In this document: positions 20,865-57,113 of the stretch, piece by piece
How positions within the stretch are numbered: the stretch's first letter is position 1
Layout of the letters: each line of letters opens with the position of its first letter
From: an uncultured bacterium
Lineage (GTDB): Bacteria; Patescibacteriota; Minisyncoccia; UBA6257; 2-01-FULL-56-20
Direction of reading: 5' to 3'
Assembly (NCBI GenBank): GCA_963696395.1
Contig: CAVOJZ010000002.1
Span: forward strand, 656,344-720,343
DNA length: 64,000 nt
Notes under the pieces: model-generated
Databases searched by the model: none
What the model was told of the DNA's origin: nothing
The model's input: the letters and a program-made list of their open reading frames with translations, nothing else
Made by a program: the position numbers and the translations under genes

Positions 20865-21221
20865 ATGGCTATGGATTATCACATTGATGCAAAAAATAAA
20901 GTGTTGGGACGCGTCGCGACTGAAATCTCGCTGATTTTGCAAGGCAAGAAATCGGCTGCGTATGCCCGCAACCGCGTTGCCGAAGACAAGGTTTATGTAA
21001 AAAATGTTGCCGGCATTATCGTCACCGGAAAGAAGACAACCGACAAGGTTTACCGCCAGCACACCGGTTACGTGGGCCACGTGAAGGAAAAGACATTTGA
21101 AGAGGCGATGACGAAAGATCCAAAGTGGGTTTTGCGCCACGCGGTTCGCAAAATGCTTCCGCAAAATTTTCTCACCCAGAAGCGCATCAAGAATTTAATA
21201 TTCGTTGAATCAGAGAAATAA
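20865..21221 (+). CDS. rplM: 50S ribosomal protein L13 (the ORF-track start at 20853 is TTG; ATG at 20865 preferred)
   Basis: ...DYHIDAKNKVLGRVATEISLILQGKKSAAY... Confidence 0.85.
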   Translation: MAMDYHIDAKNKVLGRVATEISLILQGKKSAAYARNRVAEDKVYVKNVAGIIVTGKKTTDKVYRQHTGYVGHVKEKTFEEAMTKDPKWVLRHAVRKMLPQNFLTQKRIKNLIFVESEK

Positions 21222-21222
21222 C

Positions 21223-21660
21223 ATGGCAACCACACCAATAACAAAACATCCCGCGCCGGCACATGCCCACAAGCCCGGCCGCTACACCGAAGCTGTCGGC
21301 CGCCGCAAAACGGCGATCGCCCGCGTCCGCTTGATGAAAGGGGACGGCAAGGTGACAGTGAATGGCAAGGAGCTCAAGCATTATTTTGTCCTTTCGCGCC
21401 ACGCCATTGCGGCGCGCTCTCCGCTCGATCAGCTCAAGCTTGTTGACTTCGATGTGACCGCGCATGTTTCCGGTGGTGGCATTCATGCCCAGGCCGAAGC
21501 CATTCGCCTCGGACTCTCCCGCGCGATCGTTCTCAAAGATCCCGAATGGAAACCGCGCCTCCGCGCGATCGGTTTCATGACCCGCGATTCCCGCATGGTT
21601 GAGCGCAAAAAGTACGGCAAGAAGAAAGCCCGACGCAGTCCCCAGTGGGCGAAAAGGTAA
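21223..21660 (+). CDS. rpsI: 30S ribosomal protein S9 (ATG at 21223 immediately after the rplM stop; track start 21205 overlaps rplM)
   Basis: ...GRRKTAIARVRLMKGDGKVTVNGK...SGGGIHAQAEAIRLGLSRAI...RDSRMVERKKYGKKKARRSPQWAKR. Confidence 0.85.
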   Translation: MATTPITKHPAPAHAHKPGRYTEAVGRRKTAIARVRLMKGDGKVTVNGKELKHYFVLSRHAIAARSPLDQLKLVDFDVTAHVSGGGIHAQAEAIRLGLSRAIVLKDPEWKPRLRAIGFMTRDSRMVERKKYGKKKARRSPQWAKR

Positions 21661-21680
21661 AGATACAGAAATTGCACATG

Positions 21681-21790
21681 CAAAAACACCCCAGAGAATA
21701 TCTGGGGTGTAGTGTATGTGTTCAGAAAATGAATTGATGATTTTTTGTCGCCTTGTGTTCGGAAAATGAATAGAGAACTTTTCCGCCATC
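21681..21790. repeat. Copy 1 of a ~100-nt repeated intergenic element: 9-bp hairpin (acaccccag/ctggggtgt), which acts as a minus-strand terminator, followed by two direct repeats GTGTTC(A/G)GAAAATGAAT
   Basis: About 80% identical to 40208-40310. On the minus strand the hairpin is followed by TTTTTG. Confidence 0.6.
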
Positions 21791-22773: not shown

Positions 22774-23833
22774 GAATTCTAGTTTGAATCGCAACGACCA
22801 TTGAACACCTCTCGTGGAGTGAGATAGCCGAGCCGTTTTCTCGGACGGTCATTGAGCAGTCGGACGACTCGGTCGATATCGGATTGTTTCACGATAGCAA
22901 AATCCATACCTTTTGGAAAGAATTGCCGGAGCAGGCCGTTCCAATTCTCATTCGATCCGCGTTCCCAAGAGTGATAGGGCGTCGCGCGGTAGACGGTAAT
23001 ATCAATATCTTTTTCAAGCAAACGATCGTAATCGCCGAACTCAGGACCGTTGTCACGTGTCATGGTGTGCCGCTTTTTCTTCGGGATCTTTTTGAACCGA
23101 TCGCGCGTGATCGCATGTACGTTCTCCGCAGTGACTTTTTCGACTTTGTCCGCCGCACCAAAACCACTCGCCCGATCGACGTGGGTGAGCATCCGTTGCT
23201 TTTTGGTGCGGTCAAGAATCGTATCGCCTTCCCAGTCGCCGATTCGCCTGCGCTCCTCAACCACCGGTGGGCGTTCTTCGATTCGCCTGATTTTCAATGC
23301 GTTCCGCTTGGCTTTCCTCGTGTTCGTGCCACGCCTCCTGCGCCACTTTCCCTTTTGATACCGCAGATATTTTTTGAGGTCCGACCGGTCGCGGTATACG
23401 AACTGGTAAATCGTCTCATGGGAGACGACGGTGTGTTTCGTCATTCGCTGCAAACGTCCCGCGATCTGTTCGGGCGACCAATAGTGCTTGAGTTTTCGCA
23501 TGACATGGCGGCGGAGCGTTCGATCATGCTTCAATTTCTGCGACGGTTCTTTGGCAGCAAACCTTCGGTATTGTGTCTTGTGATGGGCGCTGCCGCCGCG
23601 ATATACGCCGTCATCATCACGGTTCCTCCTGATCTCCCGACTGATTGTACCCGGACTCTTGCCAAGCCGGTCCGCGATCCATGACTGTGTTTTGCCCACC
23701 AAGAGCAGGTGGGCTAGCGCGACACGGTCGTCGCGCGTAAAATGCGAGTGCGACATCTCCGTTATGTGGGTTTTTGGTATTCGACGTACCGATATTCTCA
23801 CCCGCGGAGATGTTGCATTTCAAGATTGAATTC
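22774..23833 (-). mobile_element. IS30-family insertion sequence (~1.06 kb) with imperfect terminal inverted repeats sharing a GAATTC core
   Basis: Contains the IS30-type transposase gene. Left end tgaattctagtttgaatcgcaacg and right end (reverse complement) cgaattcaatcttgaaatgcaaca share about 18 of 26 positions. The transposase stop codon lies inside the terminal repeat. Confidence 0.7.
22779..23801 (-). CDS. IS30-family DDE transposase (likely ATG start at 23756, MSHSHF...; the track start at 23801 is GTG)
   Basis: HTH ...SWIADRLGKSPGTISREIRRN. C-terminus ...ERGSNENWNGLLRQFFPKGMDF...LNDRPRKRLGYLTPREVF matches the IS30 transposase C-terminal signature (GTNENTNGLIRQYFPK...NNRPRK). Confidence 0.85.
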   Translation of the reverse strand: MRISVRRIPKTHITEMSHSHFTRDDRVALAHLLLVGKTQSWIADRLGKSPGTISREIRRNRDDDGVYRGGSAHHKTQYRRFAAKEPSQKLKHDRTLRRHVMRKLKHYWSPEQIAGRLQRMTKHTVVSHETIYQFVYRDRSDLKKYLRYQKGKWRRRRGTNTRKAKRNALKIRRIEERPPVVEERRRIGDWEGDTILDRTKKQRMLTHVDRASGFGAADKVEKVTAENVHAITRDRFKKIPKKKRHTMTRDNGPEFGDYDRLLEKDIDITVYRATPYHSWERGSNENWNGLLRQFFPKGMDFAIVKQSDIDRVVRLLNDRPRKRLGYLTPREVFNGRCDSN

Positions 23834-24140: not shown

Positions 24141-24389
24141 GTGATACATTGAAGTCACAACTGAATAGAAGTCGCCTAAACCTGTCAGAAATGGCGGGCA
24201 TGGCGCAAAGTCCGGTTAGACATAAAGAACCCATCATGTGGGATTGTCTAACCGGCCATATCGGGAAACCGATATGGAGGGCCAAAAACCCTCGCCTACG
24301 TGGTGGGCTTTTTATTAAAAAAGTTTTCTGCGTGGCGAGCTATATATCTTCAAGCCGGACGGAAGATATGGACGGAATCAGCCACGGTT

Positions 24390-26486
24390 ATGCCAAAAGA
24401 ACTACAAACGCAACTTTCCGATAACGAAAGACGAGACGTGATAAAGTATTTGGAAGCAGGGAAACCGCTTCCGGAAAAATATCGTTTTTTACTATTCAGT
24501 GAGGCTCAAGAGGTAGAGCTTCTTTGGAACGGTAAGACCAATGAGGTTACGAATGTCGTATTGCCGTTCCAAGTAATAGAGCAGATAGACGAACCAAGAA
24601 GCGATAAAAAGATTGGGCTGCAGGATTCTCTTTTCGATACTTCAGGCAGGCAGATAACGGGCTGGACGAATAAGCTGATCTGGGGCGATAACAAGCTTAT
24701 TCTTTCATCGCTCAATAATGGACCATTGCGAAAAGAAATAGAGGCGAATGGGGGCTTGAAATTGATTTACATCGATCCACCATTCGACGTTGGTGCCGAT
24801 TTTTCTATGGATATTAAAATCGGTGATGGCGATGATGAAGAAAGTTTTACAAAAAAACCATCAGTGATAGAAGAAATCGCTTATCGCGACACGTGGGGCA
24901 AGGGCGCTGACAGTTTTATTGCGATGGTGTATGAACGGTTAAAATTGATGCACGCCTTGTTAGCTGAAGACGGCAGTTTGTATGTTCATTGTGATTATCG
25001 TGTTAGTGGATATATGAGATTGGCTCTTGACGAAGTGTTTGGAAAAGATAACTTTAGAAATGAAATTGTATGGGGTTATAGGACGGGTGGTATCTCTAAG
25101 GAGTTTTTTGCTCGCAAACACGACATTGTGTTTTTCTATGCAAAGAATGCCGAGAAAGTAAAATTTAATACTCAATTTTATAAATCCTTCCAACAGAAAA
25201 AATATAATTTTAAAGGAGTTGAGGATTTATGGGATGAAGAAAAAGAGCAGTGGTACCATAACTCAGTTTGTCGGGACGTCTGGGAAGATGTGTTCCCAAT
25301 AGGAACCGAGAATAGCGAGCGCCTTGATTATCCGACACAAAAGCCAGTTGCGCTTCTCGACCGAATAATTAAAGCATCCTCAAATGAGGGCGACCTCATC
25401 GCCGATTTCTTCTGTGGTTCCGGGACAACACTTGCTGTTGCAGAAAAACTCGGTAGGAAATGGATTGGTTCCGATCTTGGAAAATTTGGCATTCATACGT
25501 CGCGCAAACGATTAGTCGGGACGCAGAGAGAACTCAAAAGGGAAGGCAAGAATTTTCGCGCCTTCGAGATTTTGAATGTCGGCAGATATGAAAGGGATAA
25601 TTTTCTCAAGTTGAATAACGATTTGCGTGCGGAGGAAAAAGCTAAGCAAGCAGAAAGAAAAGAGAAAGAATTCGTGCAACTAATCATTTCTGCATATAAA
25701 GCTGAACCAGTGGGGTCTTTTAAGACCCTGGTCGGGAAGAAACGCGATAGATTGGTTGCAGTTGGGCCAATCAATGCCCCGGTTTCCGAACGACTCGTTC
25801 AGCAGATCGTTGAGGAATGCGAGAAAATGAAGATAACTAAAGTGGACGTTCTGGGATTTGATTGGGAGATGGGCTTTGATCGACATGAATTCAGGGGGAG
25901 CGGCATTGATATCGCCTTTAAAGTAATTCCGAGAGAAGTGTTTGATAAGAAGGCAGTGGAAAAAGGCCAAGTCAAGTTTTACGATGTGGCATTCATTGAA
26001 GCGGAGCCGGTTATTAAAGGCAACGCCAACAATAAAGAACTTTCCATTGCACTTACAGATTTTTCCGTTTTTTATAACCAAGATGATTCCGGTGAGGTGG
26101 AGGAAGCCCTTCGACCTGGCGGCGTAAAAATTATCGTAGAAAATGGGCAGGTAGTGAAAATGTCAAAAGACAAAGCGACCGAACTCATTGAAAAGGAGAT
26201 ACTGACGAAGAAGTGGAGTGATTGGATTGACTATTGGGCAGTTGATTTTGATTTTTCGAGCCGAAAGGAGATTGTCAAAGTAATGGAAGGGGGCAAAGAG
26301 AATGAGGTCTGGACGGGGGATTACATTTTTGATAACGAATGGCAAAGCTTCCGGACAAAGAAGAACAGGAACCTTGAATTGACCTCCGCGCCCAAGGTAG
26401 TGCGAAAGGGGACGTATAAAGTCGCGGTTAAAGTCGTAGACATTTTCGGGAACGATACGACAAAGGTAATCGAGGTAAAAATATAA
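24390..26486 (+). CDS. mod: Type III restriction-modification DNA methyltransferase (Mod; beta-class N6A/N4C MTase); alternative GTG start at 24300
   Basis: ...[13 protein letters not shown]...[14 protein letters not shown] (motif IV DPPF) precedes motif [26 protein letters not shown]. The length and a C-terminal target-recognition-like region fit Mod. It is immediately followed by res. Confidence 0.8.
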
Positions 26487-26487
26487 T

Positions 26488-29181
26488 ATGGCCCTACCTA
26501 AAGATTTTCCCAAAGATCCCTATGCCATATTAGATCCGAGCATTCGATGGTTTCCTGCCGATGAAGATTTGCGCGAAAAAGGGTACGACAAACTTCTGCC
26601 TCCACTTGTCGCTGAATTACGCAAGAGAGTAAAGAAGTGGCGAGACGATCACTATGAAGGTGCAAGTGAAACCTCGCGAGCGCTTTTGAACTGGTGGTTT
26701 AATGAGGATCATATTTTGTACGACGAATATGGCGCATCGTCTCAGTTTAGATATTATTTTGCCCAAAGGGAGGCGTTAGAGACGGTTATCTGGTTATATG
26801 AGGTCGCAAAGGTCAAAGATAAGTACGACCTCATTCGATATAATTCGACCGGCGTGCTGAGTGCGGGGATGTTCACTGAAGACTGGTTGCGTTTTGTAAT
26901 CAAGATGGCAACGGGGTCGGGCAAAACCAAGGTGATGAGCCTTGTGGTGGCATGGGCATATTTCCATAAAAAATACGAATCAGATTCCAAATTGGCAAAG
27001 AATTTTCTCTTAATAACTCCTAATGTCATCGTCTTCGAAAGAATAAAGAACGATTTTGAGGGGTTGAAGATATTCTTTAGCGATCCCGTGTTACCGGAAA
27101 ATGGATATGAGGGTCAAAACTGGCAGGATGATTTTCAGATGACGCTTCACTTACAAGACGACTTGCGGAACGTCTCTGAAACGGGAAACATATTTCTAAC
27201 GAATATCCACCGAGTATATGAAAATGACGTAAGGGAAGCGAGTCCGGACGACGAGGATGCTTCTGCGTATTTCTTGGGCGAGAAGCCTGTTACGAAAACA
27301 AACGATTCTACGGTCGATTTAGGGATGATCGTCAGAGATATCGATGAGCTGATTGTCATCAACGATGAAGCGCATCATATACACGATGAAAAGATGGCGT
27401 GGTTCAAGTCGATTTTGGATATCGATAACAAATTGAAGCAAAAGGGGTCGGGTTTGGCTTTGCAGCTGGACGTGACAGCAACGCCAAAGAAAAGTGACGG
27501 GTCTATTTTTGTGCAAACCATTTCCGACTATCCACTTGTCGAAGCCATATACCAGAGAATCGTAAAAAATCCCGTTGTGCCGGATGCGGCGAGTAGGGGA
27601 AAACTGAAAGAAAATCAAAGTGCTTTGTTCAGTGAAAAATACAGGGATTACATAAACCTTGGCATTGAAGAATGGCGAAAAACGTACGAGACGCTCAAGC
27701 CCATGGGCAAGAAATCAATTCTTTTCATCATGACCGATGACACGAAGAACTGCGATGAGGTTGCTGAATATATCGAAACGAGCTACGCAGACTTGAAAGG
27801 GGCCGTCTTAACTATTCATACCAATAAGAGCGGTGAAATCTCGGAGAATGTTACCGGCAAGAACAAGGATGAATTGGATTTGCTGAGGAAACAGGCGAAC
27901 GATATAGATAGCTTGGAAAGCCGGTTTAAAGTAATCGTGTCGGTTATGATGCTCAAAGAAGGATGGGATGTCAAAAACGTCACCACAATCGTCGGGCTGA
28001 GGCCGTTTGCGGCAGATTCAAAGATATTGCCCGAACAAACCCTGGGGCGGGGTCTCCGAAGGATGTTCTTCGGCAGGGATGACGTTGAAGAATATGTGAG
28101 CGTCGTAGGCACACCGATGTTTATGGATTTCGTCGAATCCATCAAGGGCGAAGGTGTGATCCTTGAAAGGAAAGCGATGGGGAGTGGGTCAAAACCGATT
28201 ACGCCGATGGTCGTTGAAGTGGACAGGGAGAATCCCAAGAAAGATATTGAAAAGTTGGACATTGAAATACCGGTGATGTCTCCCAGGATACAAAGGGAGT
28301 ACAAGAATTTGGCGGAGTTAGATGTTTCCACTTTTGGGAATAAGAAGGTTAAAGTGAAAACTTTCTCCGAAGAGGAGAAAAGAGAAATAGTGTTCAAAGA
28401 CGTCGTCGATGAAAAGACGCATCATACGACCATATTGACCGGGGATATCGAGCCGGATTATCAAAGCGTTATCGGTTTTTTTGCTCAATCGGTGATGAGG
28501 GACCTTCGGCTGTTCGGCTGCTACGATATTTTATTCGGCAAGGTGAAGGAATTCGTGCAGCATCACCTGTTTGATAAGCCGGTGGATTTGTCGGATCTGA
28601 ATGTCTTGAGGAATTTATCGGAGATCGAATACATACGACTAATCAAAGAGTCCTTCAAAAAAGCCATCAACGAACTCACGGTGCAGGATAAAGGCGATGC
28701 CGAAATCAAGAACTATATTAAAATCAGTGAAGCGCGGCCATTCGTCGTCAATGATAAGTCCTACTTAATCCCTAAAAAATCAGTTTTCAATAGGATTGTC
28801 GGCGACAGCGATTTTGAACTCGTCTTCTCGGAGTTTATCGATAGGTGCGACGACATCATTTCTTTCTCAAAGAATTTTCAAAATAAGGAGACGAATGCTT
28901 TGAGGATTGAATATAAAAATTCGGAAGGTGTCATCGCTATGTACTATCCCGATTTCTTCGTTAAGAAAGATGATCGGACGGTCTATATTATTGAGACCAA
29001 GGGGAGAGAGGAGGAAGACGATAAATTGAAATTTGAACGATTACAAAAATGGTGCGAAGATGTTAATGAGAGACAGAGCAGAATGATGTATAAAGCTTTA
29101 TATATTAAGCAGGAGGAGTGGCAAAAAGAACGACTCAAGAATTTCGATGAGGTTATAAGGATGTTTGATAAAGAAAAATAG
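26488..29181 (+). CDS. res: Type III restriction enzyme Res subunit (SF2 helicase + C-terminal PD-(D/E)xK nuclease)
   Basis: Walker A IKMATGSGKTKVMS, DEAH-like VINDEAHHI, helicase motifs, and C-terminal YYPDFFV...IIETKG. The ATG is 1 nt after the mod stop, indicating translational coupling. Confidence 0.8.
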   Translation: MALPKDFPKDPYAILDPSIRWFPADEDLREKGYDKLLPPLVAELRKRVKKWRDDHYEGASETSRALLNWWFNEDHILYDEYGASSQFRYYFAQREALETVIWLYEVAKVKDKYDLIRYNSTGVLSAGMFTEDWLRFVIKMATGSGKTKVMSLVVAWAYFHKKYESDSKLAKNFLLITPNVIVFERIKNDFEGLKIFFSDPVLPENGYEGQNWQDDFQMTLHLQDDLRNVSETGNIFLTNIHRVYENDVREASPDDEDASAYFLGEKPVTKTNDSTVDLGMIVRDIDELIVINDEAHHIHDEKMAWFKSILDIDNKLKQKGSGLALQLDVTATPKKSDGSIFVQTISDYPLVEAIYQRIVKNPVVPDAASRGKLKENQSALFSEKYRDYINLGIEEWRKTYETLKPMGKKSILFIMTDDTKNCDEVAEYIETSYADLKGAVLTIHTNKSGEISENVTGKNKDELDLLRKQANDIDSLESRFKVIVSVMMLKEGWDVKNVTTIVGLRPFAADSKILPEQTLGRGLRRMFFGRDDVEEYVSVVGTPMFMDFVESIKGEGVILERKAMGSGSKPITPMVVEVDRENPKKDIEKLDIEIPVMSPRIQREYKNLAELDVSTFGNKKVKVKTFSEEEKREIVFKDVVDEKTHHTTILTGDIEPDYQSVIGFFAQSVMRDLRLFGCYDILFGKVKEFVQHHLFDKPVDLSDLNVLRNLSEIEYIRLIKESFKKAINELTVQDKGDAEIKNYIKISEARPFVVNDKSYLIPKKSVFNRIVGDSDFELVFSEFIDRCDDIISFSKNFQNKETNALRIEYKNSEGVIAMYYPDFFVKKDDRTVYIIETKGREEEDDKLKFERLQKWCEDVNERQSRMMYKALYIKQEEWQKERLKNFDEVIRMFDKEK

Positions 29182-29556
29182 ATGGACACGATCCACCTCG
29201 TCCATAATGGTTTCAAAGAGCCAACGAAGGAAGCCGCTGATTTGAAGGACGAGCTTAAGAAACGCGGTGTTAAGGTTTACGTGGAACTCAACGACGGATA
29301 TAAACATGTCGATCTGGCACTTCCCGATGCAAAGCTCAACGTTGAAGTGGATGGTGTTCACCACCTTACTAACCCGAAACAGATCGTAACAGACCTCAGT
29401 CGTGGATATTATTCGAACAAGTTAGGATATAGCACTATGCATATCCCAAACGAGATGATTCGTCTGCACCTAAAAGAAATAGCGGACGCGCTCGCCGAGG
29501 CATCGAAGATGCTCGAACAGAAGATACGAATTCACCTCACTGGGGACGATAAATAA
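29182..29556 (+). CDS. DUF559/Vsr-like endonuclease-fold protein (124 aa)
   Basis: VEVDGVHHL motif. The start abuts the res stop codon, so it is co-operonic with the R-M genes. Confidence 0.5.
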   Translation: MDTIHLVHNGFKEPTKEAADLKDELKKRGVKVYVELNDGYKHVDLALPDAKLNVEVDGVHHLTNPKQIVTDLSRGYYSNKLGYSTMHIPNEMIRLHLKEIADALAEASKMLEQKIRIHLTGDDK

Positions 29557-29979: not shown

Positions 29980-30195
29980 ATGAGCAGGAAAGCTGCTGAT
30001 GGAGGAGAATTGATTTTGTATAATGAAGGCATGAAAGAGAGAAGGGTTGTTGAGTTGCTCCATCATTTTTATTGCAAGAAGTGTAAGAAGTGGTGGTCGA
30101 TAGGTGATGCGCCGACAAACAGGCACGTCTGGTTTTGCCCATGGTGCGGAAGGGAAAATAATTACCGGCTCAAAAAAAGCAGGGCGAAGCGCTAA
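29980..30195 (+). CDS. Small zinc-ribbon protein, copy 1 (conserved 54-aa core MKERRVVELLHHFYCKKCKKWWSIGDAPTNRHVWFCPWCGRENNYRLKKSRAKR begins at ATG 30031)
   Basis: CxxC-x16-CxxC ribbon with a basic C-terminus. The core is about 90% nt-identical to 55905-56080. The conserved block starts at ttgtataatgaaggcATG, where TATAAT sits 6 nt before the ATG. Confidence 0.55.
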   Translation: MSRKAADGGELILYNEGMKERRVVELLHHFYCKKCKKWWSIGDAPTNRHVWFCPWCGRENNYRLKKSRAKR

Positions 30196-30320
30196 CCTCG
30201 CGCTTTCGACCTGGGATAGCAAAGATTTTAGCTCAACAAAGGTTGGGCTATTTTCTTAGTACCTTTATCCCCGCCTCTTCATTTTGCCCCCGGAACAAGG
30301 TAGAATAAAGGGTAAGACTC
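30177..30320 (+). repeat. Intergenic module copy: hairpin 1 (gaagcgc/gcgcttt), terminator hairpin (agctcaac/gttgggct + ATTTTCTT, 30230-30258), promoter-like segment with C5 tract, 5' leader
   Basis: Shared with 34540-34704, 51050-51131, 56081-56119 and, in part, 40160-40200, 44905-44965 and 57035-57113. Confidence 0.7.
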
Positions 30321-33300
30321 ATGGCAGGCAACCTTTATAAGAAATCCCTCTATATATTGATAGCTCTCGGGCTCATCTGTTTTGGGATGCAGGTGAAACT
30401 GGCGGAGGCGGTGATCTTTCAGGTTGAGGTTGCGAGCTCGACGGGAAACGCAGTCAATTCTAGTGCGACTACGAGTTTCGCTACCTCGACAACGGCAGGA
30501 GAGTTTATCGTTGTTCATGTGAGCCCGACGCTTGTGAATGGCAGTACCGGTACTAGTACGGTCACTGACAATAAAGGCGATGTTTATACCGAGCTGTGGG
30601 CCGTCCATCAGAATTTTAACTATAACAACGAGCTCTTCTACCTCGCCGATGCCCCGCAAGGAGTGACAACGATCAGTGTCACGTTCCCTACTGGAGTGAC
30701 CAGTGGGGGTGTCATTGCTGCCCATTACACGGGAGTGGTAACCGCGAATCCACTAGACGTCTATTCTGCACCCCCTACTGGCGGTGGTTATTCACTCACT
30801 CCGTGGTCGAGTGGTGCGGTTACAACGAGCTATGCAAACGAGCTTCTAATAGGAACCGACTTCGCCCTTGAGGACGCTGGCAGCTGTACCATCGCGCCAA
30901 GTGGCAGTTGGACGCAGGATGCGAGTATGGGCGACAGTAACGGATTCGACGGTCATAACGGCGATGCAATGTCTTACGCCCATCAAATAGTCTCTACCGT
31001 TCAGACAAACATTCAGAACACAGGGATCAATCCCATCGGAACCTGCTACAACTATCCCGGCATCGCAACGTTCAAAGGTTTAGCTGCCACTACATCCACT
31101 CCCTCCGTCGCCTGGGTTACTCCGACTCAGAACGCTACCGTCTCCTCTACGATTACGCTCACGGCATCATCCACCGACGAGATTGCCGTCGCAAACGTTG
31201 CTTTCTACGAATCTCCCTCCGGTGCGAACTTCGCAAGCAGCACGCTTATCGGATCGACCTCCACCGCCTCAGGGACCCTCTACTCCATACCTTGGAACAC
31301 AAAAAACGTATCAAACGGTTCAACCACCCTCTGGGCTTTAAGTACGGACACCTCAAATAACACATCCACCGCATCGACTACGGTGAATGTAGAAAATGTG
31401 CCCACCATCAATTCCTTCTCCGCTTCTGCCACCATCGTCCTCTCCGCAGGAACATCAACGTTGAGTTGGAACGTCACGAAAGCAAGTTCCGTCGCCATCA
31501 CCCCAGGAAGCTTCTCGACCAGCACCCTCATCGGAGCGACTACCGTGAATCCCACTTCAACAACGGTTTATACCCTCACCACAGCGAACAGCAATGGCAC
31601 GAGCACCGCATCAACTACGGTGACCGTCGACTCCGCCCCTCCCACGACCCCCACCGGCCTCACCGCAACATCAACGTCCTCCACGGCCGTCGAGCTCTCT
31701 TGGGCATCCTCAACCGACAGTGGCGGTCCTGGTCTCGCCGGATACAACATCTTCAGATGTATCGGATCATGTACCCCAGGTGCGCCCGCGATCGCTACTT
31801 CTTCCGGCGCTTCCTATGGCGACACCGGACTTAGCGCTTCCACCACCTACACCTATGCCGTCTCGGCCTATGACACACTGGGACTCACCTCCGCCACTTC
31901 GACTACGGCAAGCGCAACAACCCAAGTAGGCCGCACCTTTTATATCGCTGCGAATGGCAATGACTCCAGCAACGGCACCTCAACATCAACGCCCTGGGCA
32001 CATGCTCCTGGCATGCCCAACTGCACGTCGATCTGCGCTTCGACCACTCCTCAGCCAGGCGACCGATATATTTTCAGGGGCGGGGATACGTGGCATTTCG
32101 GAAATAGTAGTGCCACGCCTTATGTCGGCGGAACATGGAATTGGAGTTGGAGTGGGACGTCTACGAATTGTGATACTTCTGACGCACCGTCGCCCGTGAG
32201 AACCTCGTGCATTTATATTGGTGTCAACAAAACTTGGTATTCGGGAAGTTCGTGGGCGCGTCCCATTATGAATGGCGACAATCCAACAAGCACGACCGCA
32301 GTAGCGAGTTGCTTATACGGAAACGTAGGCCCTCAGAATCAGTTCTTGCTTGTAGACAATGAAGCATTTGCGTGGTTCGACAGTTTTGAGTGGACTGGTA
32401 TGTGTCACAGCACGCCTTCCTCTGCGGGTAATAACTACGGAAATAATTACGATCTCTACATCGCAGACCCCGGTGGGTCAAGTGAAATCACTCAAAATAT
32501 TTTCTCAAATAATTATTTCCATGGATGGACCCATGTCCCGTTGTCTTGTTCTGACGCGAGCGGAGAACCAGTTGGGCAATGTTTTTCTGACTCTGCGATC
32601 TCTGGTGGTCTTATGACCACGTTCGGGCCGGGAAATATATGCGACGGCTGGGATTCTGATCCGTCAGATGTGGGTTGTATATTGTTCGCTCCTGGTTATC
32701 TCGTATACGATAATGTGTTTGCAAATATGGCGCAGATTGTGGTAAACGCCTATCACGATTGGCACGACAATCTTTGGTTTAACTACTATCCAACCGACGA
32801 CGGGGTAGCTCATGGCAATTCGTTTGAGTCGAACGTCGATGCTCCGCAGCACGATGAAGATGGGTATTATCAGCCCAACGTACCCTTCAACGTTTTCTAC
32901 GATAATATTTTAGGGAACAATGCGAGCGGCACCGGAGGCGATGTGAAGCTTTGGTTTACGCCAAACAATACTGCCGCCGAATATTACTTCAATAATATTG
33001 TTTATGACCAGGGAAGTGGGAACAATTGGGACATTGATACTTCGCAAGGCGGCGCGGCGGGACAGTTTATGTTTAATAACACGCTTGATGTGCCCAATGC
33101 CGGATCGCTAAACTGCACATCGCATTTAACCGTAACCGGAAATCACGAGGTCGTTGATGGGGGGTCGGCCTTTGCGAACGGTTCTTGCTCAATTTCGAAC
33201 GAGATCCAAATGACCCATGCAACTGCAGTGGCGCAAGCTTATATGGCAACCGGAAGAGGCACGAGTGGATCGAACAACAACACAACCTGTGCAAATAGCT

Positions 33301-34508
33301 CGACTCCGTGTGCGCCAACCGCATCGAGCAATGCCACCGTTGGAGCCGGAGCTAATTTGCAGAATTATTGCACCACCCTTCTTGGATCGGGTGACGGTGA
33401 AATTGTCCGAGCAGGAAGTGCTTGCGAATCCGGGACAACTGATGCTTGTGCCTACAACGCAGTCAACCACACGGTCTCATGCCCGGCGTTTACGCCGATC
33501 GCCCGCCCAATCTCCACGGCCTGGGACGCCGGCGCCTATGAATATCAGAATACATCAGGCACTCCTCCCACCATCTCCTCTTTCTCCTCCTCTCCTCTCT
33601 ACACCCAGCCAAGCGCCACCTCAACCCTCTCCTGGAACATCACGAACGCAAGTTCTGCTCTGATTGTTAACCTAACCACAGGTATACCCCTTCCGACAGG
33701 AACCGTCCTTGTCTATCCCACGTCTACCACCACCTACATCCTCTCTGCCTCAAACCCCAATGGCACCTCCACCGCAGCAACAACCATTACCGTGCAAAGC
33801 ATCCCTCCCTCAGTACCCCAGAATCTCTCGGCAGATCCCGTATCCACCTCGGAAATTGATCTCTCCTGGACGGCAAGCACAAGCACGATCCCCATATCCG
33901 GCTATGGCATATTTGAAAACAGCGTGCAGATCGCAACGACCTCGGCTACCAGTTACCAGAACACCGGTCTCTCAGAAGACACCACCTACACCTATGCGGT
34001 AGATGCCTTTGATGCCGCAGGGAATGTATCAGGACAAAGCTCATCCACAAGCGCAACCACGGAAACCCAGCAATCTGGAGGGGGCGGAGGTGGCGGCGGT
34101 GGCGGGGGAGGTGGAGGTGGTGGTTGCTACTACAACTGCAGCTATGGAGGTTCTTCCTTCACAAGCACCGCCTCAGGCACGAATGGGACCGGAAGCTCTT
34201 CTCTCCTTGCAACACTTCTCGCGGAGCTTGAAACCTTGATCAAAGTATTGAATACCCAATTAGTCACGTCTTTCACACGAAACCTCACCCTGGGGAGCCG
34301 GGGAGCTGACGTAGAAAACCTCCAGATCTTCCTCAATGACAATGGCTACCCCATAGCACAGACGGGAGCAGGATCCCTCGGACATGAATCAATCTACTTT
34401 GGGACCAAGACGGCACAGGCTCTGGCCAAATGGCAGAAGGCCAACGGACTTCCGGCTACCGGTTACTTTGGGGGACTGACGAGGAGATTACTCAACAAGC
34501 TGTATTAG
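30321..34508 (+). CDS. Giant surface protein paralog (1395 aa): signal peptide, Ig-like and FN3 domains, beta-helix domain, Ig-like/FN3, poly-Gly, C-terminal PG-binding module
   Basis: Signal peptide LYKKSLYILIALGLICFGMQ. FN3-like PTTPTGLTATSTSSTAVELSWASSTDSGG. Beta-helix region FYIAANGNDSSNGTSTSTPWAHAPGMPNCTS shared with the 41049 gene. C-terminus LNDNGYPIAQTGAGSLGHESIYFGTKTAQALAKWQ. Confidence 0.8.
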   Translation: MAGNLYKKSLYILIALGLICFGMQVKLAEAVIFQVEVASSTGNAVNSSATTSFATSTTAGEFIVVHVSPTLVNGSTGTSTVTDNKGDVYTELWAVHQNFNYNNELFYLADAPQGVTTISVTFPTGVTSGGVIAAHYTGVVTANPLDVYSAPPTGGGYSLTPWSSGAVTTSYANELLIGTDFALEDAGSCTIAPSGSWTQDASMGDSNGFDGHNGDAMSYAHQIVSTVQTNIQNTGINPIGTCYNYPGIATFKGLAATTSTPSVAWVTPTQNATVSSTITLTASSTDEIAVANVAFYESPSGANFASSTLIGSTSTASGTLYSIPWNTKNVSNGSTTLWALSTDTSNNTSTASTTVNVENVPTINSFSASATIVLSAGTSTLSWNVTKASSVAITPGSFSTSTLIGATTVNPTSTTVYTLTTANSNGTSTASTTVTVDSAPPTTPTGLTATSTSSTAVELSWASSTDSGGPGLAGYNIFRCIGSCTPGAPAIATSSGASYGDTGLSASTTYTYAVSAYDTLGLTSATSTTASATTQVGRTFYIAANGNDSSNGTSTSTPWAHAPGMPNCTSICASTTPQPGDRYIFRGGDTWHFGNSSATPYVGGTWNWSWSGTSTNCDTSDAPSPVRTSCIYIGVNKTWYSGSSWARPIMNGDNPTSTTAVASCLYGNVGPQNQFLLVDNEAFAWFDSFEWTGMCHSTPSSAGNNYGNNYDLYIADPGGSSEITQNIFSNNYFHGWTHVPLSCSDASGEPVGQCFSDSAISGGLMTTFGPGNICDGWDSDPSDVGCILFAPGYLVYDNVFANMAQIVVNAYHDWHDNLWFNYYPTDDGVAHGNSFESNVDAPQHDEDGYYQPNVPFNVFYDNILGNNASGTGGDVKLWFTPNNTAAEYYFNNIVYDQGSGNNWDIDTSQGGAAGQFMFNNTLDVPNAGSLNCTSHLTVTGNHEVVDGGSAFANGSCSISNEIQMTHATAVAQAYMATGRGTSGSNNNTTCANSSTPCAPTASSNATVGAGANLQNYCTTLLGSGDGEIVRAGSACESGTTDACAYNAVNHTVSCPAFTPIARPISTAWDAGAYEYQNTSGTPPTISSFSSSPLYTQPSATSTLSWNITNASSALIVNLTTGIPLPTGTVLVYPTSTTTYILSASNPNGTSTAATTITVQSIPPSVPQNLSADPVSTSEIDLSWTASTSTIPISGYGIFENSVQIATTSATSYQNTGLSEDTTYTYAVDAFDAAGNVSGQSSSTSATTETQQSGGGGGGGGGGGGGGGGCYYNCSYGGSSFTSTASGTNGTGSSSLLATLLAELETLIKVLNTQLVTSFTRNLTLGSRGADVENLQIFLNDNGYPIAQTGAGSLGHESIYFGTKTAQALAKWQKANGLPATGYFGGLTRRLLNKLY

Positions 34509-34539
34509 AAGAGAGGACAAAAAGAAATTTCCTAAAGTC

Positions 34540-34704
34540 CATCATGCACCGGAGCATTGCAGTGGGCGAAGCGCTAACCTGACGCTTCGGACCTGGTATA
34601 ACAAAGATTTTAGCTCGACAAAGGTTGAGCTATTTTCTTATATACTTATCCCCACCTCCTCATTTTGCCCCCCCCAGAACACGGTAAACTGATAAGTAAG
34701 CTCT
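34540..34704 (+). repeat. Intergenic module copy: hairpin 1 (cgaagcg/cgcttcg), terminator hairpin 34611-34639, promoter-like segment with poly-C8 (~34667-34674), leader
   Basis: See 30177-30320. There is no intact zinc-ribbon gene upstream; only its 3' tail (gggcgaagcgctaa) remains. Confidence 0.7.
34667..34674 (+). promoter_or_regulatory. Poly-C8 homopolymer in the putative -35/-10 spacer (TTTTGC-C8-AGAACACGG-TAAACT) upstream of the 34705 gene
   Basis: Homopolymeric tract between -35-like and -10-like hexamers about 30 nt upstream of the ATG. Coordinates +/-1. Confidence 0.4.
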
Positions 34705-37700
34705 ATGATAGGCACCCTTCATAAGAAATCCCTCTATATATTGATAGCCCTTGGGCTGTTCTGTTTTTTTGGCTTTATTCCTCAGGTTCATGCTGCTCCA
34801 GCCGTTGTGCAAAGCTGCAATGATATGGAATATACCGCCAAGGCGACGTGCACATTGCCGGGCAACATGGGGCCAAACCATACGATTATTGCTACGGCAT
34901 ATTCATCAGCCGCTAGTGATACGTTTTCAATCACAGGATGCGGGGGTAGTTGGAACAACCTTTATGCCTATAACGCGGCAAACTTTTCATGGAATGTCTG
35001 GACGACGACATCAACGAATGGCCTATCGTGCACCGCTTCGACAACGCTTAACCCCAATAACAACTATAACTTTCTTGATCTCATGGAAGTTTCGGGTGTC
35101 GGAGCGTCCGACGTAGCTCCCGCGGTCAATAATCCTTCCTATTGTTCAAGCTGTTCCAGTGCGCCGATAACAACCGCGACCAATGGCGACCTTGTCCTTC
35201 TTTTGAATTTCGACCCGAGTACTTATGAAGCCTATAGCAACTTCACTAACAGTTTTTCGATTTTTGCGCAGGGAACTTCAACGGTGCACGGTCAAGGTAC
35301 CGGATCCTATGCCATATCAAATCTTTTGCAATCTCTCGCGGGAAATATTTCAAGTACATGGACTGCTTCAGTGGCGTCGTCATATGAGGACAGCCTCATC
35401 ATGGCGTTCAAGCCGGGTCAGTCTTTTCCTGCAATCTCTTCCTTCTCCGCTTCCCCCTCGGAAGTCCTTCCCGGAGGAACATCGACACTAAGCTGGAATG
35501 TTTCCAACGCCTCTTCGGTCGCTATCACCCCAGGTTCTTTCAGTACGAGCACGCTCATCGCATCTACGACGGTAAATCCCACCTCGACGACGATGTATAC
35601 TCTGATCGCCACGAACAGCAACGGGACGAGTACAGCGACGACGACGGTGAGTATCGATTCATCGACTCCAACCACGCCGACCAATCTTGTCGCAACCTCT
35701 CTCTCTGCCTCGCAAATATCCCTCGCCTGGACTTCGTCCACGGATAGCGGGGGGTCGGGCATCGCCGACTACAACATCTTTAGGTGTCTGGGATCCTGTA
35801 CTCCCACCACGACAGTCGCCACTTCATCAGGTGCTTCCTATATCGACAGCAACCTCACTGCCTCAACGACCTACACCTATGCTGTCCAGGCCGTGAACGG
35901 CGTAGGAACCCTAAGCGCTACAAGTACAAGCGTGAGTACGATGACGCAGGCGAGTGGCGGCACCGACCCATGGGCTGGCATCATTGCGCCCTCCCGGGCC
36001 ATGAATTGGAAGGAAGAGGCTGGCCTTACCCAAACATTTCCTGATGGCGAAACAACGCTGAATGCGTGGACTCCGCCAACCCGAGCAACCGTTTGCGCCA
36101 CCGTAGCGCCAGAAGGGACGGCAGCATCGCCAGTCGCCTTTGCCAGTTCGAACCTCGAGATAGCCGAGGCGTCCTGCCCCGCAGGCGAAGTGGTGCAGCT
36201 TGAAACTGGGAGCTACTACTACAGTACCAATCCCCAGATCGCTTCGATTTCCTACCCAAACACCATCAATAACATAACGGTGCGCGGCGCGGGCGCAGAT
36301 CAGACTAAAATCTATGCGCCGGGCTTTGGTCTCACAGGTAGTGATGTGTACGCTTCTGAGGCGTACAGCAATGCATGGTCGGGACCGTATGCTCAGGGCT
36401 CGCTCACCACCACCTTTTCCGGTCTCTCAGTAGGTGACTTGCTTAACTTATCCCAATGTGCCACCGGGTTTAGTGGGTCAAACCCGTGTACGAATCCAAC
36501 GAACTCAGAGATCGATAATGGTGGAGAGTTTGTTACCAGTCTGGATAATCCTTGGTATCACATAAATGGAACCAACGTTCAGGGAGGGCAGCTCGAGTTC
36601 CAGGTCGTACGGGTCAACTCAATAGTAGGCTCAACGGTGACGTTTTCTGACCCGGTGCAACCCGACAATTTTTCCAGCGCAGAAACACCGTCTTTTGAGC
36701 GCATATATTCTGGGACTAATGGGGTTCCGAATGGTATTGGTCTTGAGGATTTATCTCTTGATGCGACCTTCGATTCTGGAACCGGAGGACTCGGTATAAC
36801 ATTCTGCTACGACTGCTGGGTTAAAGGCGTAAGACTCATCACCACAACTCAAAACTACAACGGCGACGTAGGTGTGGACGGCTCAGATCATGTATTGATA
36901 GCGAATAACTATTTCTCCTTCGGGAACTCCGGCAATTATGGGATCTCGATTGGGAGTTCAGATGGCGTAAGTAACGCTCTCGTGCTAAATAATATCGTTA
37001 CTGGTTCCGGTTTTATCAGCGGTGACGGAGCAACGGGGGTGGTAATTGCTGATAATTATGTGGCACCGTCCGAGCTTGACGAGATTGATTCGCATAGCCC
37101 CTGGAGGGATTATACGCTGGTCGAAGGCAATGTCGCTTGTTCATACGAAGACGATCCCGACCATGGTGGTGCGGCCGATTTCACGACGTTGTTCAGAAAT
37201 CGTCTTGGCACGAATCAGACCTGCCTATCTGCAGCGTCAACAATCAGCGAGGGGGCTGGGAGTCGGTACACTAATATTGTTGACAACGTTTTGGGATTGC
37301 CGGGTTTTACCACAGCCTATCAAGACTTTGATTATTCGGCGAGTAGTCCGGCTGTATATCAATTTGGTGCCAATGCAGTAACTGGTAGCGCAGGTATTCC
37401 CTGGGACCCTCTGAGTTTAAATACATCATTCCGGTGGGGTAATTGGGATGACGTAAACGGCGGCGTACAGGAGAATGACTCTGAAGTACCTAGCTCACTG
37501 GATGCAGCAGTAGGCTATCAGCAGGCACTCAGTGGTAGCAGCACAACGTGGTCGGGAACCCTCGCTCATCTTCCGGGGATTTCGCCGGATAGCGCCGTGT
37601 ATGTTCCGGCAACAGTCACGAGTTCCCCCCAGCTTTTCGCATTTGATAACGGCTCGGGTACATTGACATACAACGGTACGGGAACCATCAATTATTCCAC

Positions 37701-40116: not shown

Positions 40117-40207
40117 AAGGAGGCAGCAAAAAAGAAATTTCCTAAAGTCCACCGTGAACCAGGGCATTGCAGTGGGCGAAGCGGTGAGCGTTCAGGAATT
40201 GGATATA

Positions 40208-40310
40208 CGAAAACACCCCAGAGAAAATCTGGGGTGTTTGCTATGTGTTCAGAAATCGAATACGTCTTTTTCTTGTCGTGATGTATTCAGAAAATGGACA
40301 TGCGAATATT
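40208..40310. repeat. Copy 2 of the ~100-nt hairpin + direct-repeat element
   Basis: aaaacaccccagagaaaatctggggtgt...tatgtgttcagaaatcgaat...tcttgtcg...gtattcagaaaatgga aligns with 21681-21790. Confidence 0.6.
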
Positions 40311-40343
40311 GAGCAATGAACCTCAACGAGATAGAATTAACGT

Positions 40344-40979: not shown

Positions 40980-41048
40980 TGCCGCGTTATCCCCACCTCC
41001 TCATTTTGCCCCCCCCAGAACACGGTAAACTGATAAGTAAGACACTAC
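40980..41048 (+). repeat. Promoter/leader part of the intergenic module (identical to 34645-34704) including poly-C8 (~41009-41016)
   Basis: ttatccccacctcctcattttgccccccccagaacacggtaaactgataagtaag is repeated verbatim. Confidence 0.7.
41009..41016 (+). promoter_or_regulatory. Poly-C8 homopolymer in the putative promoter spacer upstream of the 41049 gene
   Basis: Same context as 34667-34674. Confidence 0.4.
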
Positions 41049-44897: not shown

Positions 44898-45096
44898 AGG
44901 AGAGGGCGAGAAGAAACTTCCGTGGGCGAAGTGTTAAAGCAGCACTTTCGTCCCAGTATTTCACTGAAAATGCTCTTGCTAAGTCAAGGGCATTTTGGGT
45001 TTTTAAAGAGCGGAGGGGAGAGGGTAAGAAGCTGGCGGGCAGGTATTTTGAAACTTTTTTCCCGTCTGGGTAGTACCTATAGATAAGAACATCGCT

Positions 45097-50970: not shown

Positions 50971-51049
50971 AGTCATATCGGACCATCCCGGTTTCTGTGA
51001 AAACGCGGCCTTATCATTTATCTCCAAAGTCATATTGATCCATAGGGTT

Positions 51050-51131
51050 CTAGTGGGCGAAGCACTAAGCTGGCGCTTTGGACCTGGGATAGCAAAGATT
51101 CTAGCTCAACAAAGGTTGGGCTATTTTCTTA
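51050..51131 (+). repeat. Intergenic module copy (hairpin 1 degenerate; terminator hairpin 51103-51131 intact), then a unique leader
   Basis: agcaaagattctagctcaacaaaggttgggctattttctta. Confidence 0.65.
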
Positions 51132-54651: not shown

Positions 54652-54734
54652 AAGGAGGCAGCAAAAAAGAAATTTCCTAAGATTTTTGCCTAAAGTTCAC
54701 CGTGCATTAGGATAGTACAAATGGCCACTCATCA

Positions 54735-55169
54735 ATGAAAAAGGTAGGGAATAAAACCAAAGTTTGCAGCAGGGGACATAAGTACTCGGGCAGTGGATTA
54801 TGCCCGGTTTGCTGGCCGTCGGGGGCTGTGGATGCTTACATCCGTAAGGCGCCAAAGGGAGCACGTTCAAAATTAATGGAAATGCGAAAGACAATACGAT
54901 CGGTCGCGCCAGATGCTCTGGAAGGTATAAGTTATAAGATGCCAGCATTCGACAACGGTCGCATAGCATGGTTCGCTAGTATGAGGGGTTATATCGGGCT
55001 GTATCTCCGCCCGCCGATTATTGAGATCCACAAGAAAAAATTGGCGCGATTTAAAACTACAAAGTCCGCCATCCATTTTCCCTTGGACGAGAAGCTCCCC
55101 ATCGCACTGATTAAAAAACTTATCAGGTCACGCATGAAAACACGGAGCAAATCAGACGCGCGATATTGA
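54735..55169 (+). CDS. DUF1801 (YdhG-like) domain protein with N-terminal Cys4 zinc ribbon
   Basis: CSRGHKYSGSGLCPVC; ...EGISYKMPAFDNGRIAWFASMRGYIGLY... Confidence 0.5.
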   Translation: MKKVGNKTKVCSRGHKYSGSGLCPVCWPSGAVDAYIRKAPKGARSKLMEMRKTIRSVAPDALEGISYKMPAFDNGRIAWFASMRGYIGLYLRPPIIEIHKKKLARFKTTKSAIHFPLDEKLPIALIKKLIRSRMKTRSKSDARY

Positions 55170-55187
55170 GGCAATCCGAAGTCCACC

Positions 55188-55718
55188 ATGAATGAGATCA
55201 AGCTCAATGTATGGAAAACGCTTACCTTGGATCGTTTTGATTCGGTAGATGCGATAGAAAAAGCTCTTACTCGGAAAAACATATCGGTCAGTAAATTTGC
55301 GCTGGAAGTCCTTCAAGGCATTCCGCTTGTGAAGGATCAGCAGAAGATTGAACTCATAAAGATTTCCCCAAGGTATTTGGGCTTCACAGTGAGAGATCAG
55401 GCCCAACGAGAAGTAATATTGGATCGTGCAAAGAAAATAGGGCTTCGACTCGTTCCACCGCAGGTGGGATCGCAGGTTTTACTTGAAGATCCTCAAGCTC
55501 CCAATGAGTGCGTTGAGGAAGGGATGTATATTGGCATGAATCCTGTTTCAACCGCTCGAGGAGAGTCCGGTATATTTGCAATTGAAGGGACGCTGCACGC
55601 TGAATATGACGGCGAAGGTAGGGGTCCCACCATAACGTCAGGCGTGCCCGTACTTTCGGCGAGTAGCGGTCTCGGAATTGGTTATGATCTAGATTCGGAA
55701 TGGATTTTCATGCGGTAA
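55188..55718 (+). CDS. Hypothetical protein (176 aa)
   Basis: ORF only. Confidence 0.3.
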   Translation: MNEIKLNVWKTLTLDRFDSVDAIEKALTRKNISVSKFALEVLQGIPLVKDQQKIELIKISPRYLGFTVRDQAQREVILDRAKKIGLRLVPPQVGSQVLLEDPQAPNECVEEGMYIGMNPVSTARGESGIFAIEGTLHAEYDGEGRGPTITSGVPVLSASSGLGIGYDLDSEWIFMR

Positions 55719-56080
55719 TTCGGCTTAAAGGAGTTTGCACACGGGCACTGCTCAATGCCGTTTCGCTCGCCGGGAACTTAGCAATGGAAAATAAATTTGA
55801 TGAGCAATTCCTCAAGCTCGCCGATGTTTGCTATGCCGACGCACTCAATTCGGCGGTGTACGCCAGGCAGGATGTGCGGCTTTTTTATAGCGGCAGGGCT
55901 TTGTATAATGAAGGCATGAAAGTGAGAAGGGTTGTTGAATTGCTCCATCATTTTTGTTGCAAGAAATGTAAGAAATGGTGGTCGATAGGTGATGCGCCGA
56001 TAAATAAGCACGTCTGGTTTTGCCCGTGGTGCGGAACGGAAAATAATTACCAATCCAAGAATGGAAGCGCGAAGCGGTAA
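55700..56080 (+). CDS. Small zinc-ribbon protein, copy 2 (conserved 54-aa core from ATG 55916: MKVRRVVELLHHFCCKKCKKWWSIGDAPINKHVWFCPWCGTENNYQSKNGSAKR; the in-frame upstream extension is unique to this copy)
   Basis: The core is about 90% nt-identical to 30020-30195 and is followed by the module's terminator hairpin. Confidence 0.5.
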   Translation: MDFHAVIRLKGVCTRALLNAVSLAGNLAMENKFDEQFLKLADVCYADALNSAVYARQDVRLFYSGRALYNEGMKVRRVVELLHHFCCKKCKKWWSIGDAPINKHVWFCPWCGTENNYQSKNGSAKR

Positions 56081-56090
56081 CGAAGATTTT

Positions 56091-56119
56091 AGCTCAACAA
56101 AGGTTGGGCTATTTTCTTG
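56091..56119 (+). terminator. Intrinsic terminator of the intergenic module (agctcaac/gttgggct + ATTTTCTT)
   Basis: 8-bp stem with wobble pairs and a 4-nt loop AAAG. The same hairpin occurs at 30230, 34611 and 51103 with compensatory substitutions. Confidence 0.7.
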
Positions 56120-56467
56120 GTGGAATGTTACAATACAGTCATGAATGAATCGTCGGCGAATTTTTATGAGCAATTGAAACGACAGATGAATGAAGAGCAG
56201 GACTCCAGGGAGAAAGATTTAGCTGAACTACAAAAAGAACTCGATGGTTCACGGCGGACGTTCAACTCAGTCCCAGAAAATCGCAAGCACGAGGCGGTAC
56301 AAAGGATGAAGGTAAAATTAGTGGAGATTGAAATATTGGAAAGACGGATTGAAGCATTCAAGAAAGATCCCTCTACCCGTCCCCTCCCTCTTTCTGAAGA
56401 AGAGGATCTGGCTATAAGAAAAAGGATTAGTGATATGACCGCTGAAGAAGTTTTGGCGGGAAAGTAG
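56117..56467 (+). CDS. Hypothetical coiled-coil protein (116 aa), likely leaderless (TGTTACAAT 6 nt before the ATG)
   Basis: Charged, helical ORF. Confidence 0.4.
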   Translation: MVECYNTVMNESSANFYEQLKRQMNEEQDSREKDLAELQKELDGSRRTFNSVPENRKHEAVQRMKVKLVEIEILERRIEAFKKDPSTRPLPLSEEEDLAIRKRISDMTAEEVLAGK

Positions 56468-56482
56468 CCATATATTAAAGGC

Positions 56483-57028: not shown

Positions 57029-57034
57029 AGCGGG

Positions 57035-57113
57035 GGCGAAGCGCTAAAACAGCGCTTATCCCCAAGTATTATTTCGCTCTAAAGAGGGTCGGGTAAACTG
57101 ATAGGTAAGCTAT
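57035..57113 (+). repeat. Partial intergenic module (hairpin 1 aagcgct/agcgctt; leader ggtaaactgataggtaag), no poly-C
   Basis: gggcgaagcgctaaaacagcgctt...ggtaaactgataggtaagctatATG. Confidence 0.6.

Follow-up and report, generated by a model that had tools for sequence, protein, structure and literature searches.

Copies of the rpsI 3' end at the joints of a surface-protein gene locus in a candidate-phyla-radiation-type genome, and their probable spread by segmental duplication and recombination

In the 64,000 nucleotides of DNA analysed here (hereafter the window), a short element recurs in the intergenic spacers of a locus with giant genes for surface proteins. The question raised by this locus is what the element is derived from and how it came to be repeated. 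A sequence-only reading had described it as a module consisting of a duplicated zinc-ribbon gene, a covarying hairpin, an intrinsic terminator and a promoter, and had taken the dispersed fragments for pieces of the zinc-ribbon gene. The recurrence itself proved to be real. A scan with the 14-nt box GGGCGAAGCGCTAA (up to 2 mismatches) identified seven sites on the + strand between 30 and 57 kb (30182, 34564, 40174, 44924, 51055, 56067 and 57034), which together with the end of rpsI make eight direct repeats in a single orientation across 36 kb. All lie within 21.6-57 kb of the 64 kb; no copy was found in positions 1-21 kb of the window or on its minus strand.

Alignment of the copies revealed a mosaic of four segments: (i) S0, about 55 nt located 3' of a giant-gene stop codon, (ii) S1, the box with a stem-loop, (iii) S2, a terminator, and (iv) S3, a spacer with a C-tract and the hexamer TAGAAT or TAAACT, beyond which lie the ATG and the codons of a conserved signal peptide. 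All four are present only in the spacer between the giant genes G1 and G2 (copy B). The components are as follows.

30180..30213, + strand: copy A, box with stem-loop S1, whose loop opens with the stop codon (box scan, folding)
30229..30257, + strand: S2 terminator hairpin and U-tract of copy A (hairpin scan, folding)
30265..30320, + strand: S3 spacer before G1, with a C5 tract and TAGAAT, a putative promoter/5'UTR (repeat comparison)
34509..34560, + strand: S0, conserved tail after the G1 stop, of which 34546-34560 already aligns to rpsI coding sequence (alignment)
34560..34595, + strand: copy B, box and stem-loop S1 (box scan, folding, alignment to rpsI of sister locus L108)
34611..34639, + strand: S2 terminator of copy B (hairpin scan)
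34646..34704, + strand: S3 spacer before G2, with a C8 tract and TAAACT (repeat comparison)
40117..40320, + strand: S0, box copy C (40171-40187, ending in GCGGTGA), type-2 rpsI flank and terminator (40211-40239), no S1 hairpin (alignment, folding)
40987..41048, + strand: S3 spacer before G3, 55 nt of it identical to the copy at 34646 (repeat comparison)
44898..44996, + strand: shortened S0, copy D box and stem-loop (44923-44955), unrelated terminator (44967-44996) (alignment, folding)
51020..51130, + strand: partial S0, copy E box and stem-loop (51049-51088) and S2 (51102-51130), upstream of G4 (alignment, folding)
54652..54700, + strand: S0 tail after G4, without a box (alignment)
56067-56080, + strand: box copy F at the end of zinc-ribbon gene 2, 3' arm of S1 deleted (alignment, folding)
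56090..56118, + strand: S2 terminator of copy F (hairpin scan)
57032..57113, + strand: copy G, box and stem-loop (57032-57063) immediately 3' of TspO, joined to an incomplete S3 (57092-57113), with the last giant gene next (box scan, folding)

All seven giant open reading frames of the window encode a C-terminal PG_binding_1 domain, and five of them, starting at 30321, 34705, 41049, 51172 and 57114, are fn3-type paralogues. The module occurs only with these five; the two remaining giants (1340 and 4647), outside the fn3 group, are followed by ordinary, unrelated terminators and no box, and a box is also absent downstream of the last giant. Fragments of the module had been placed after five of the seven giants. 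Their recurrence stands, but a box lies directly 3' of a giant gene in three cases (G1, G2 and G3), since the box at 51055 adjoins an HlyD-like gene upstream and that at 57034 adjoins TspO. Ahead of the giant genes, the segment GGTAAACTGATAAGTAAG is found in three copies and one diverged copy. Two further giant paralogues (1956 and 2246 aa) are encoded elsewhere on the same 913,682-bp contig and match G1 at 74% and 71% identity across 22% of its length. In distant loci with giant genes (L102, L104-L106), we detected similarity of the fn3 coding sequence only, with neither the module nor a zinc-ribbon gene.

The source of the box became apparent from the ribosomal-protein genes at the left of the locus. 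Sister loci (n=3; L107/L108 and L111) were identified through the 90% cluster of the window's ribosomal protein S4, and the gene order from dnaG through rpsD-rpoA-rplQ-rplM-rpsI is shared with them at 77-83% nucleotide identity. The relevant features of the window are:

21205..21660, + strand: rpsI (ribosomal protein S9), syntenic with S9 in L107, L108 and L111; its translation ends in ...RRSPQWAKR and the stop
21643-21660, + strand: prototype box CAGTGGGCGAAAAGGTAA, the last 18 nt of rpsI, encoding QWAKR-stop (box match)
21661..21790, + strand: native rpsI 3' flank of type 2, with the terminator AAAACACCCCAGAGAATATCTGGGGTGT and then ATGTGTTCAGAAA, homologous to the rpsI flank of L111 and to the flank of copy C

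The window's rpsI end encodes the same peptide (...PQWAKR-stop) with synonymous differences. In L108, the gene ends in ...CCGGAGTCCGCAGTGGGCGAAGCGCTAGacgAGCGCTTCag, followed by a terminator, and there the exact box is accompanied by the same hairpin with the stop codon embedded in it; an exact 13-mer is located at the rpsI stop in both L108 and L111. Alignment of copy B with the L108 rpsI end, which spans the two hairpin arms and 15 coding bases ahead of the box, matched 37 of 46 columns, with a score of 22.5 against 9.2 +/- 1.4 for shuffled sequences, i.e. about 9 standard deviations higher. The rpsI gene of L111 ends in CAGTGGGCGAAGCGCTGA and its flank is 85% identical to that of copy C, which explains the TGA of this copy; copy C together with about 140 nt of its flank is homologous to the native rpsI flank. 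The homology thus includes coding bases with the stop codon in register, and in copies B, C and E the match to rpsI extends 4 to 17 nt further upstream than the match to the zinc-ribbon gene. Since the box with its hairpin is the native end of rpsI in a sister genome (L108), the repeated fragment is the tail of rpsI and not, as had been supposed, that of the zinc-ribbon gene.

We therefore regard the module as probably consisting of paralogous copies of the rpsI 3' end and 3'UTR, spread by segmental duplication and recombination through the hypervariable array of surface-protein genes on the 3' side of the ribosomal operon. A full copy comprises the final codons (...QWAKR-stop), a stem-loop with the stop codon embedded in it and a Rho-independent terminator. 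The homology between modules is continuous with that of the coding sequence at both ends of the giant genes (3' and 5'), and the identity is the same, approximately 82% (33710-34573 versus 39318-40183, 81.8%; 34564-34767 versus 30182-30383, 82%). Given this continuity, the recurrence of the module needs no selection on RNA structure. We infer the following order of events, as well as all functions at the level of transcripts that are considered below. A lineage-specific array of giant fn3/PG-binding surface-protein genes lies downstream of the ribosomal-protein operon in this candidate-phyla-radiation-type genome. Unequal crossing-over, one of its breakpoints falling within the rpsI tail, would have duplicated this tail together with the stem-loop, the terminator, the spacer and the gene, so that segmental (tandem) duplications carried the conserved ends of the giant genes along with the rpsI tail. 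Recombination among the copies may have produced chimeras such as copy C (S0 on the left, native rpsI flank on the right) and copy A (zinc-ribbon gene on the left, S1-S2-S3-G1 on the right), while insertions (an NYN gene; DUF5666, an ABC transporter and HlyD; DUF1801, zinc-ribbon gene 2 and TspO) and deletions would have broken the unit into the present mosaic. The earlier suggestion that the module delimits duplicated or recombined units agrees with these data, as the box marks the joints of such segments. Two observations count against this explanation in its simplest form. The boxes also bound blocks of unrelated genes (IS30, type III restriction-modification and DUF559; an ABC transporter with HlyD; TspO), and L108 carries a different block between two boxes; such heterogeneity is not predicted by simple tandem duplication. 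Moreover, the 5' arm of S1, GGGCGAAG, is invariant across all non-coding copies, which drift alone would not predict.

The hairpins had been put forward as evidence of a selected RNA, and their folding was confirmed. S1 forms an imperfect stem of 11 to 13 bp in five of the seven copies (A, B, D, E and G), in which folding of the whole segment gave z-scores of -2.5 to -4.8, and its partners are paired in 88.5% of the alignment cells, compared with at most 58% when they are slid. It is absent from copy C. Both zinc-ribbon genes had been said to be followed by the same segment of about 90 nt; S2 does follow both, but after the second gene (copy F) the 3' arm of S1 is missing, which looks like a deletion between two TAAC repeats. 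The proposed covariation did not withstand analysis. The S1 core AAGCGCTT is a palindrome by itself, so the four arm pairs described as different are mostly one word in shifted registers. In S1, copy D carries the sole compensatory double change (C-G to U-A); besides it there are a single wobble change and two broken pairs, and a score as good as the observed one was reached in 170 of 500 shuffles. The RNAalifold covariation term of +0.53 (six copies) lends no support. In S2, where 100% of cells are paired, compensatory pairs are lacking, and the only two changes are one-sided and G-U-compatible (U-G to U-A; A-U to G-U). Rfam contains no match at the module, the best hit at E<=1 being Ysr49 with 18 bits against a cut-off of 95 bits. 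The hairpins are thus real, and selection on their pairing is not demonstrated.

The identification of the second hairpin as a terminator was borne out at the level of sequence. S2 comprises a 9-bp G+C-containing stem, a 4-nt loop and a U-rich tail; the hairpin TAGCTCAACAAAGGTTGGGCTATTTTCTT occurs four times against none expected (at 30229, 34611, 51102 and 56090), the four copies share ATTTTCTT, and those at 30229 and 34611 were found by the terminator scan. Most likely S2 still terminates transcription of the upstream gene, and S1, as an inherited 3'-end stem-loop, possibly stabilises the transcript. Two short-read contigs of ERR11563597, 100% identical to positions 55136-56112 and 56089-59827 of the window, are broken inside the repeated S2, as expected if the repeat confounds assembly.

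The putative promoter fared less well, as the proposed segment (S3) contains no match to the sigma-70 consensus (at least 9 of 12 positions). S3 most likely holds the start signals of the next giant gene. Its C-tract is C5 before G1 (30287-30291) and C8 before G2 (34666-34673) and G3 (41007-41014). If TTCATT/CTCATT and TAGAAT/TAAACT are promoter elements, their spacing changes accordingly from 17 to 20 nt, and the difference in tract length could represent a slipped-strand on/off switch.

Comparison with the sister genomes indicates where the variable DNA is located. Collinearity of the window with L108 is lost inside the box (21653/12589), and that of L108 with L111 in the same box (window 21644-21660; L108 12580-12596; L111 12643-12659). 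Downstream of rpsI the three differ: L108 has another gene block between two boxes (12580 and 13923) right after rpsI, L111 has a gene for a TIG-domain surface protein at this position, and in the window the boxes at 21643 and 30182 bound a block with an IS30-type element, a type III restriction-modification system and DUF559, which is absent from both L108 and L111. These data suggest that the 3' side of rpsI is a hotspot of variable DNA. The block of the window includes:

22779-23801, - strand: IS30-type transposase (HTH_38 and rve; domain search)
29182-29556, + strand: DUF559 endonuclease-like gene, located between rpsI and zinc-ribbon gene 1

These two genes lie on either side of the restriction-modification system. 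The block also contains a full-length Rfam match to the LOOT RNA (RF03000; 24173-24293, + strand, 89.9 bits against a cut-off of 46.4 bits), directly upstream of the type III restriction-modification pair (mod 24300-26486, res 26488-29181). A 285-aa open reading frame beside rpsI encodes a membrane-like protein without a domain match.

Such an arrangement invites another interpretation, in which the rpsI 3' end is an att-like site and the blocks, including those with the surface genes, entered serially by site-specific (Campbell-type) recombination, each event duplicating the gene tail. Eight direct repeats of the 3' end of an essential gene, in one orientation and bounding heterogeneous blocks over 36 kb, would be expected from it, as would the two synteny breaks inside the box, the alternative block of L108 and a post-box flank that differs among sister genomes at rpsI itself. 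However, no tyrosine or serine recombinase was found in the window (no Phage_integrase or Resolvase match among the open reading frames scanned) or beside the boxes of L108 and L111, the IS30-type DDE transposase being the only recombinase-like gene; the paralogous giants show homology of their coding ends from one side of the joints to the other, which duplication would produce; and the extent of the repeat varies among copies. We consider serial integration unlikely, yet the best placed of the alternatives. A related and slightly less likely idea is that the rpsI-tail box with its stem-loop is the site of an unrecognised recombinase of the candidate phyla radiation, which would have inserted, duplicated and swapped the surface, defence and transporter genes of a cassette array and could account for the exchange of flanks even at rpsI.

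A REP- or MITE-like mobile repeat, spreading independently and resembling the rpsI end by chance, is an improbable source of the box and stem-loop. The element is a short imperfect palindrome in intergenic DNA, shows an identical 5' edge in at least four left-hand contexts (zinc-ribbon gene, S0, TspO and rpsI) and is multi-copy in a sister genome too. Against this, all copies in the 64 kb have one orientation and lie in one part of it, neither terminal inverted repeats nor target duplications are present, no RAYT-like gene was found, and the similarity to rpsI reaches beyond the palindrome into the coding sequence on its 5' side.

The zinc-ribbon genes themselves remain to be considered, as on the sequence-only reading the unit derives from this gene, the first hairpin is a selected RNA, and the protein may regulate or mark the cassettes.

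30019..30024, + strand: TATAAT hexamer, 6 nt ahead of the start codon of zinc-ribbon gene 1, with a twin at 55904-55909 (a promoter role is presumed)
30031..30195, + strand: zinc-ribbon gene 1, 54 aa, with AKR-stop within box copy A (open reading frame, family alignment)
55916..56080, + strand: zinc-ribbon gene 2, 54 aa, ending in box copy F (open reading frame, alignment)

That two intact copies exist was confirmed: they are 89% identical over 182 nt from an abrupt start at TTTGTATAATGAAGGCATG, just upstream of TATAAT, and their products share 81% of amino acids and the pattern CxxC-x17-CxxC. The 20 nucleotide differences correspond to a dN/dS of about 0.25, which indicates purifying selection on both. 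The AlphaFold2 model (pLDDT 83) shows a ribbon of four short strands. Homologues elsewhere have unrelated tails, and by sequence the window genes read into a box copy, borrowing from it their last three codons (AKR) and the stop. The perfect TATAAT 6 nt before both ATGs leaves no room for a ribosome-binding site, which suggests leaderless transcripts. Such a promoter is not general in the family (TAnnnT near the ATG in 26 of 66 members against a background of 16%). In public gene calls, zinc-ribbon gene 2 is joined to an upstream in-frame stretch as a 126-aa product (55700-56080); family alignments place the true start at 55916. Look-ups of this 126-aa call and of TspO returned only contigs identical to the window. 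Copies B to E were also read by eye for a small open reading frame with its end at the box; this idea was rejected, as no plausible start codon is present.

Relatives of the protein were not found by a word-index search or by exact look-ups of the 54-aa and 71-aa products, but an exhaustive profile (HMM) search yielded 526 cluster representatives at E<=1e-3 (91 at E<=1e-10), some of them fused to unrelated domains. The family signature, E.L.HF.C..C.KWWSIGDAP…WFCPWCG, lies outside every Pfam, NCBIfam, PHROG and PDB entry searched. The best Pfam/NCBIfam match of the window protein (Zn_ribbon_SprT, 18.2 bits) falls below the gathering cut-off of 28.1 bits, and 40 family members gave sub-threshold matches only; a profile search of the PDB produced nothing better than E 9e-4, to an unrelated protein; PHROGs contained no zinc-ribbon family match above threshold; and GenBank phages had no match to a bacterial-type or phage-type member. 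Foldseek with the AlphaFold2 model retrieved generic zinc ribbons (Tim15/Hep1, RbpA and S27e) at E>=0.4, a lead at most. Our literature search returned nothing on this family.

We then compared 100 loci with relatives of the gene (692 kb), of which 2 came from genomes, 80 from metagenomes and 18 from IMG/VR. Module segments were absent from all of them, and in none of the 100 was a gene of more than 655 aa located directly downstream of the relative, contrary to the expected linkage of the gene with such cassettes in related genomes. Instead, secA is situated directly upstream in 18 loci, NUDIX genes adjoin the relative in 11, GrpE upstream and DnaK downstream flank it in at least two (L009 and L018), and in T4-like viral contigs it follows the gp45 sliding clamp. 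Examples of these neighbours are found at:

L012, 2997-5519
L013, 2875-5322
L009, 3097-5064
L018, 5510-6004
L093, 5319-5999

The protein is thus the product of a widespread, uncharacterised gene of housekeeping context, whose link with the cassettes is local to this genome. A unit founded on the zinc-ribbon gene, for which the ending of both genes in the box followed by S2, the retention of the hairpin in five of seven copies and the single compensatory pair in copy D could be cited, is largely refuted and the least probable of all the readings, as the box is the rpsI tail, covariation is no better than in shuffles, the second gene lacks the 3' arm of S1, and the family occurs elsewhere beside SecA, GrpE/DnaK and NUDIX genes.

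The preferred explanation, duplication of the rpsI tail, concerns a known kind of feature, a duplicated gene tail with its terminator; what is unusual is its presence at every joint and its origin in a ribosomal gene that is essential. In this ultra-small bacterium, eight copies of the tail mark the joints of a surface-protein locus that changes fast, and they show where and how such genomes diversify their cell surface, and the short tag (AGTGGGCGAAGCG with its flanks) is usable for finding the same hotspot in related genomes. The large unannotated zinc-ribbon family (526 clusters), with members beside secA, between grpE and dnaK and in T4-like phage contigs, is worth a study of its own.

Several known systems resemble parts of this locus. 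The zinc-ribbon protein is similar to small stand-alone zinc-ribbon proteins (Pfam DUF5817, DUF7836 and the HVO_2753 type) in its size of about 50 aa, its two CxxC knuckles and the four-strand ribbon of the model, although all matches of the family are below the curated cut-offs. As in Rho-independent terminators with an upstream 3'-end stem-loop, S2 is located directly after genes and S1 just upstream of S2; unlike them, the module is a unit copied 4 to 8 times that carries rpsI coding sequence, and its function here is predicted from sequence. The imperfect hairpin at the 3' end of each block in the same orientation recalls the attC sites of integrons, whereas the R'' (RYYYAAC) and R' (GTTRRRY) boxes are absent on direct reading of the copies, IntI and attI are lacking, rpsI heads the array, and the blocks appear to carry their own start signals. 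Islands that integrate at the ends of tRNA or housekeeping genes leave attL/attR direct repeats of the gene 3' end, and here too direct repeats of an essential gene's final 18 to 30 nt surround variable blocks and synteny breaks there; the differences are that no integrase was found and that many blocks are paralogous with homologous ends, which duplication explains. Finally, the Mycoplasma vlp and vsa loci are tandem multigene families encoding variable surface proteins with conserved 5' regions. Although the organism and the proteins are unrelated and there is no evidence of phase switching in the window, its paralogues likewise share an upstream spacer, a signal peptide and a 3' end around variable middles, with a homopolymer tract (C5 versus C8) in the spacer.
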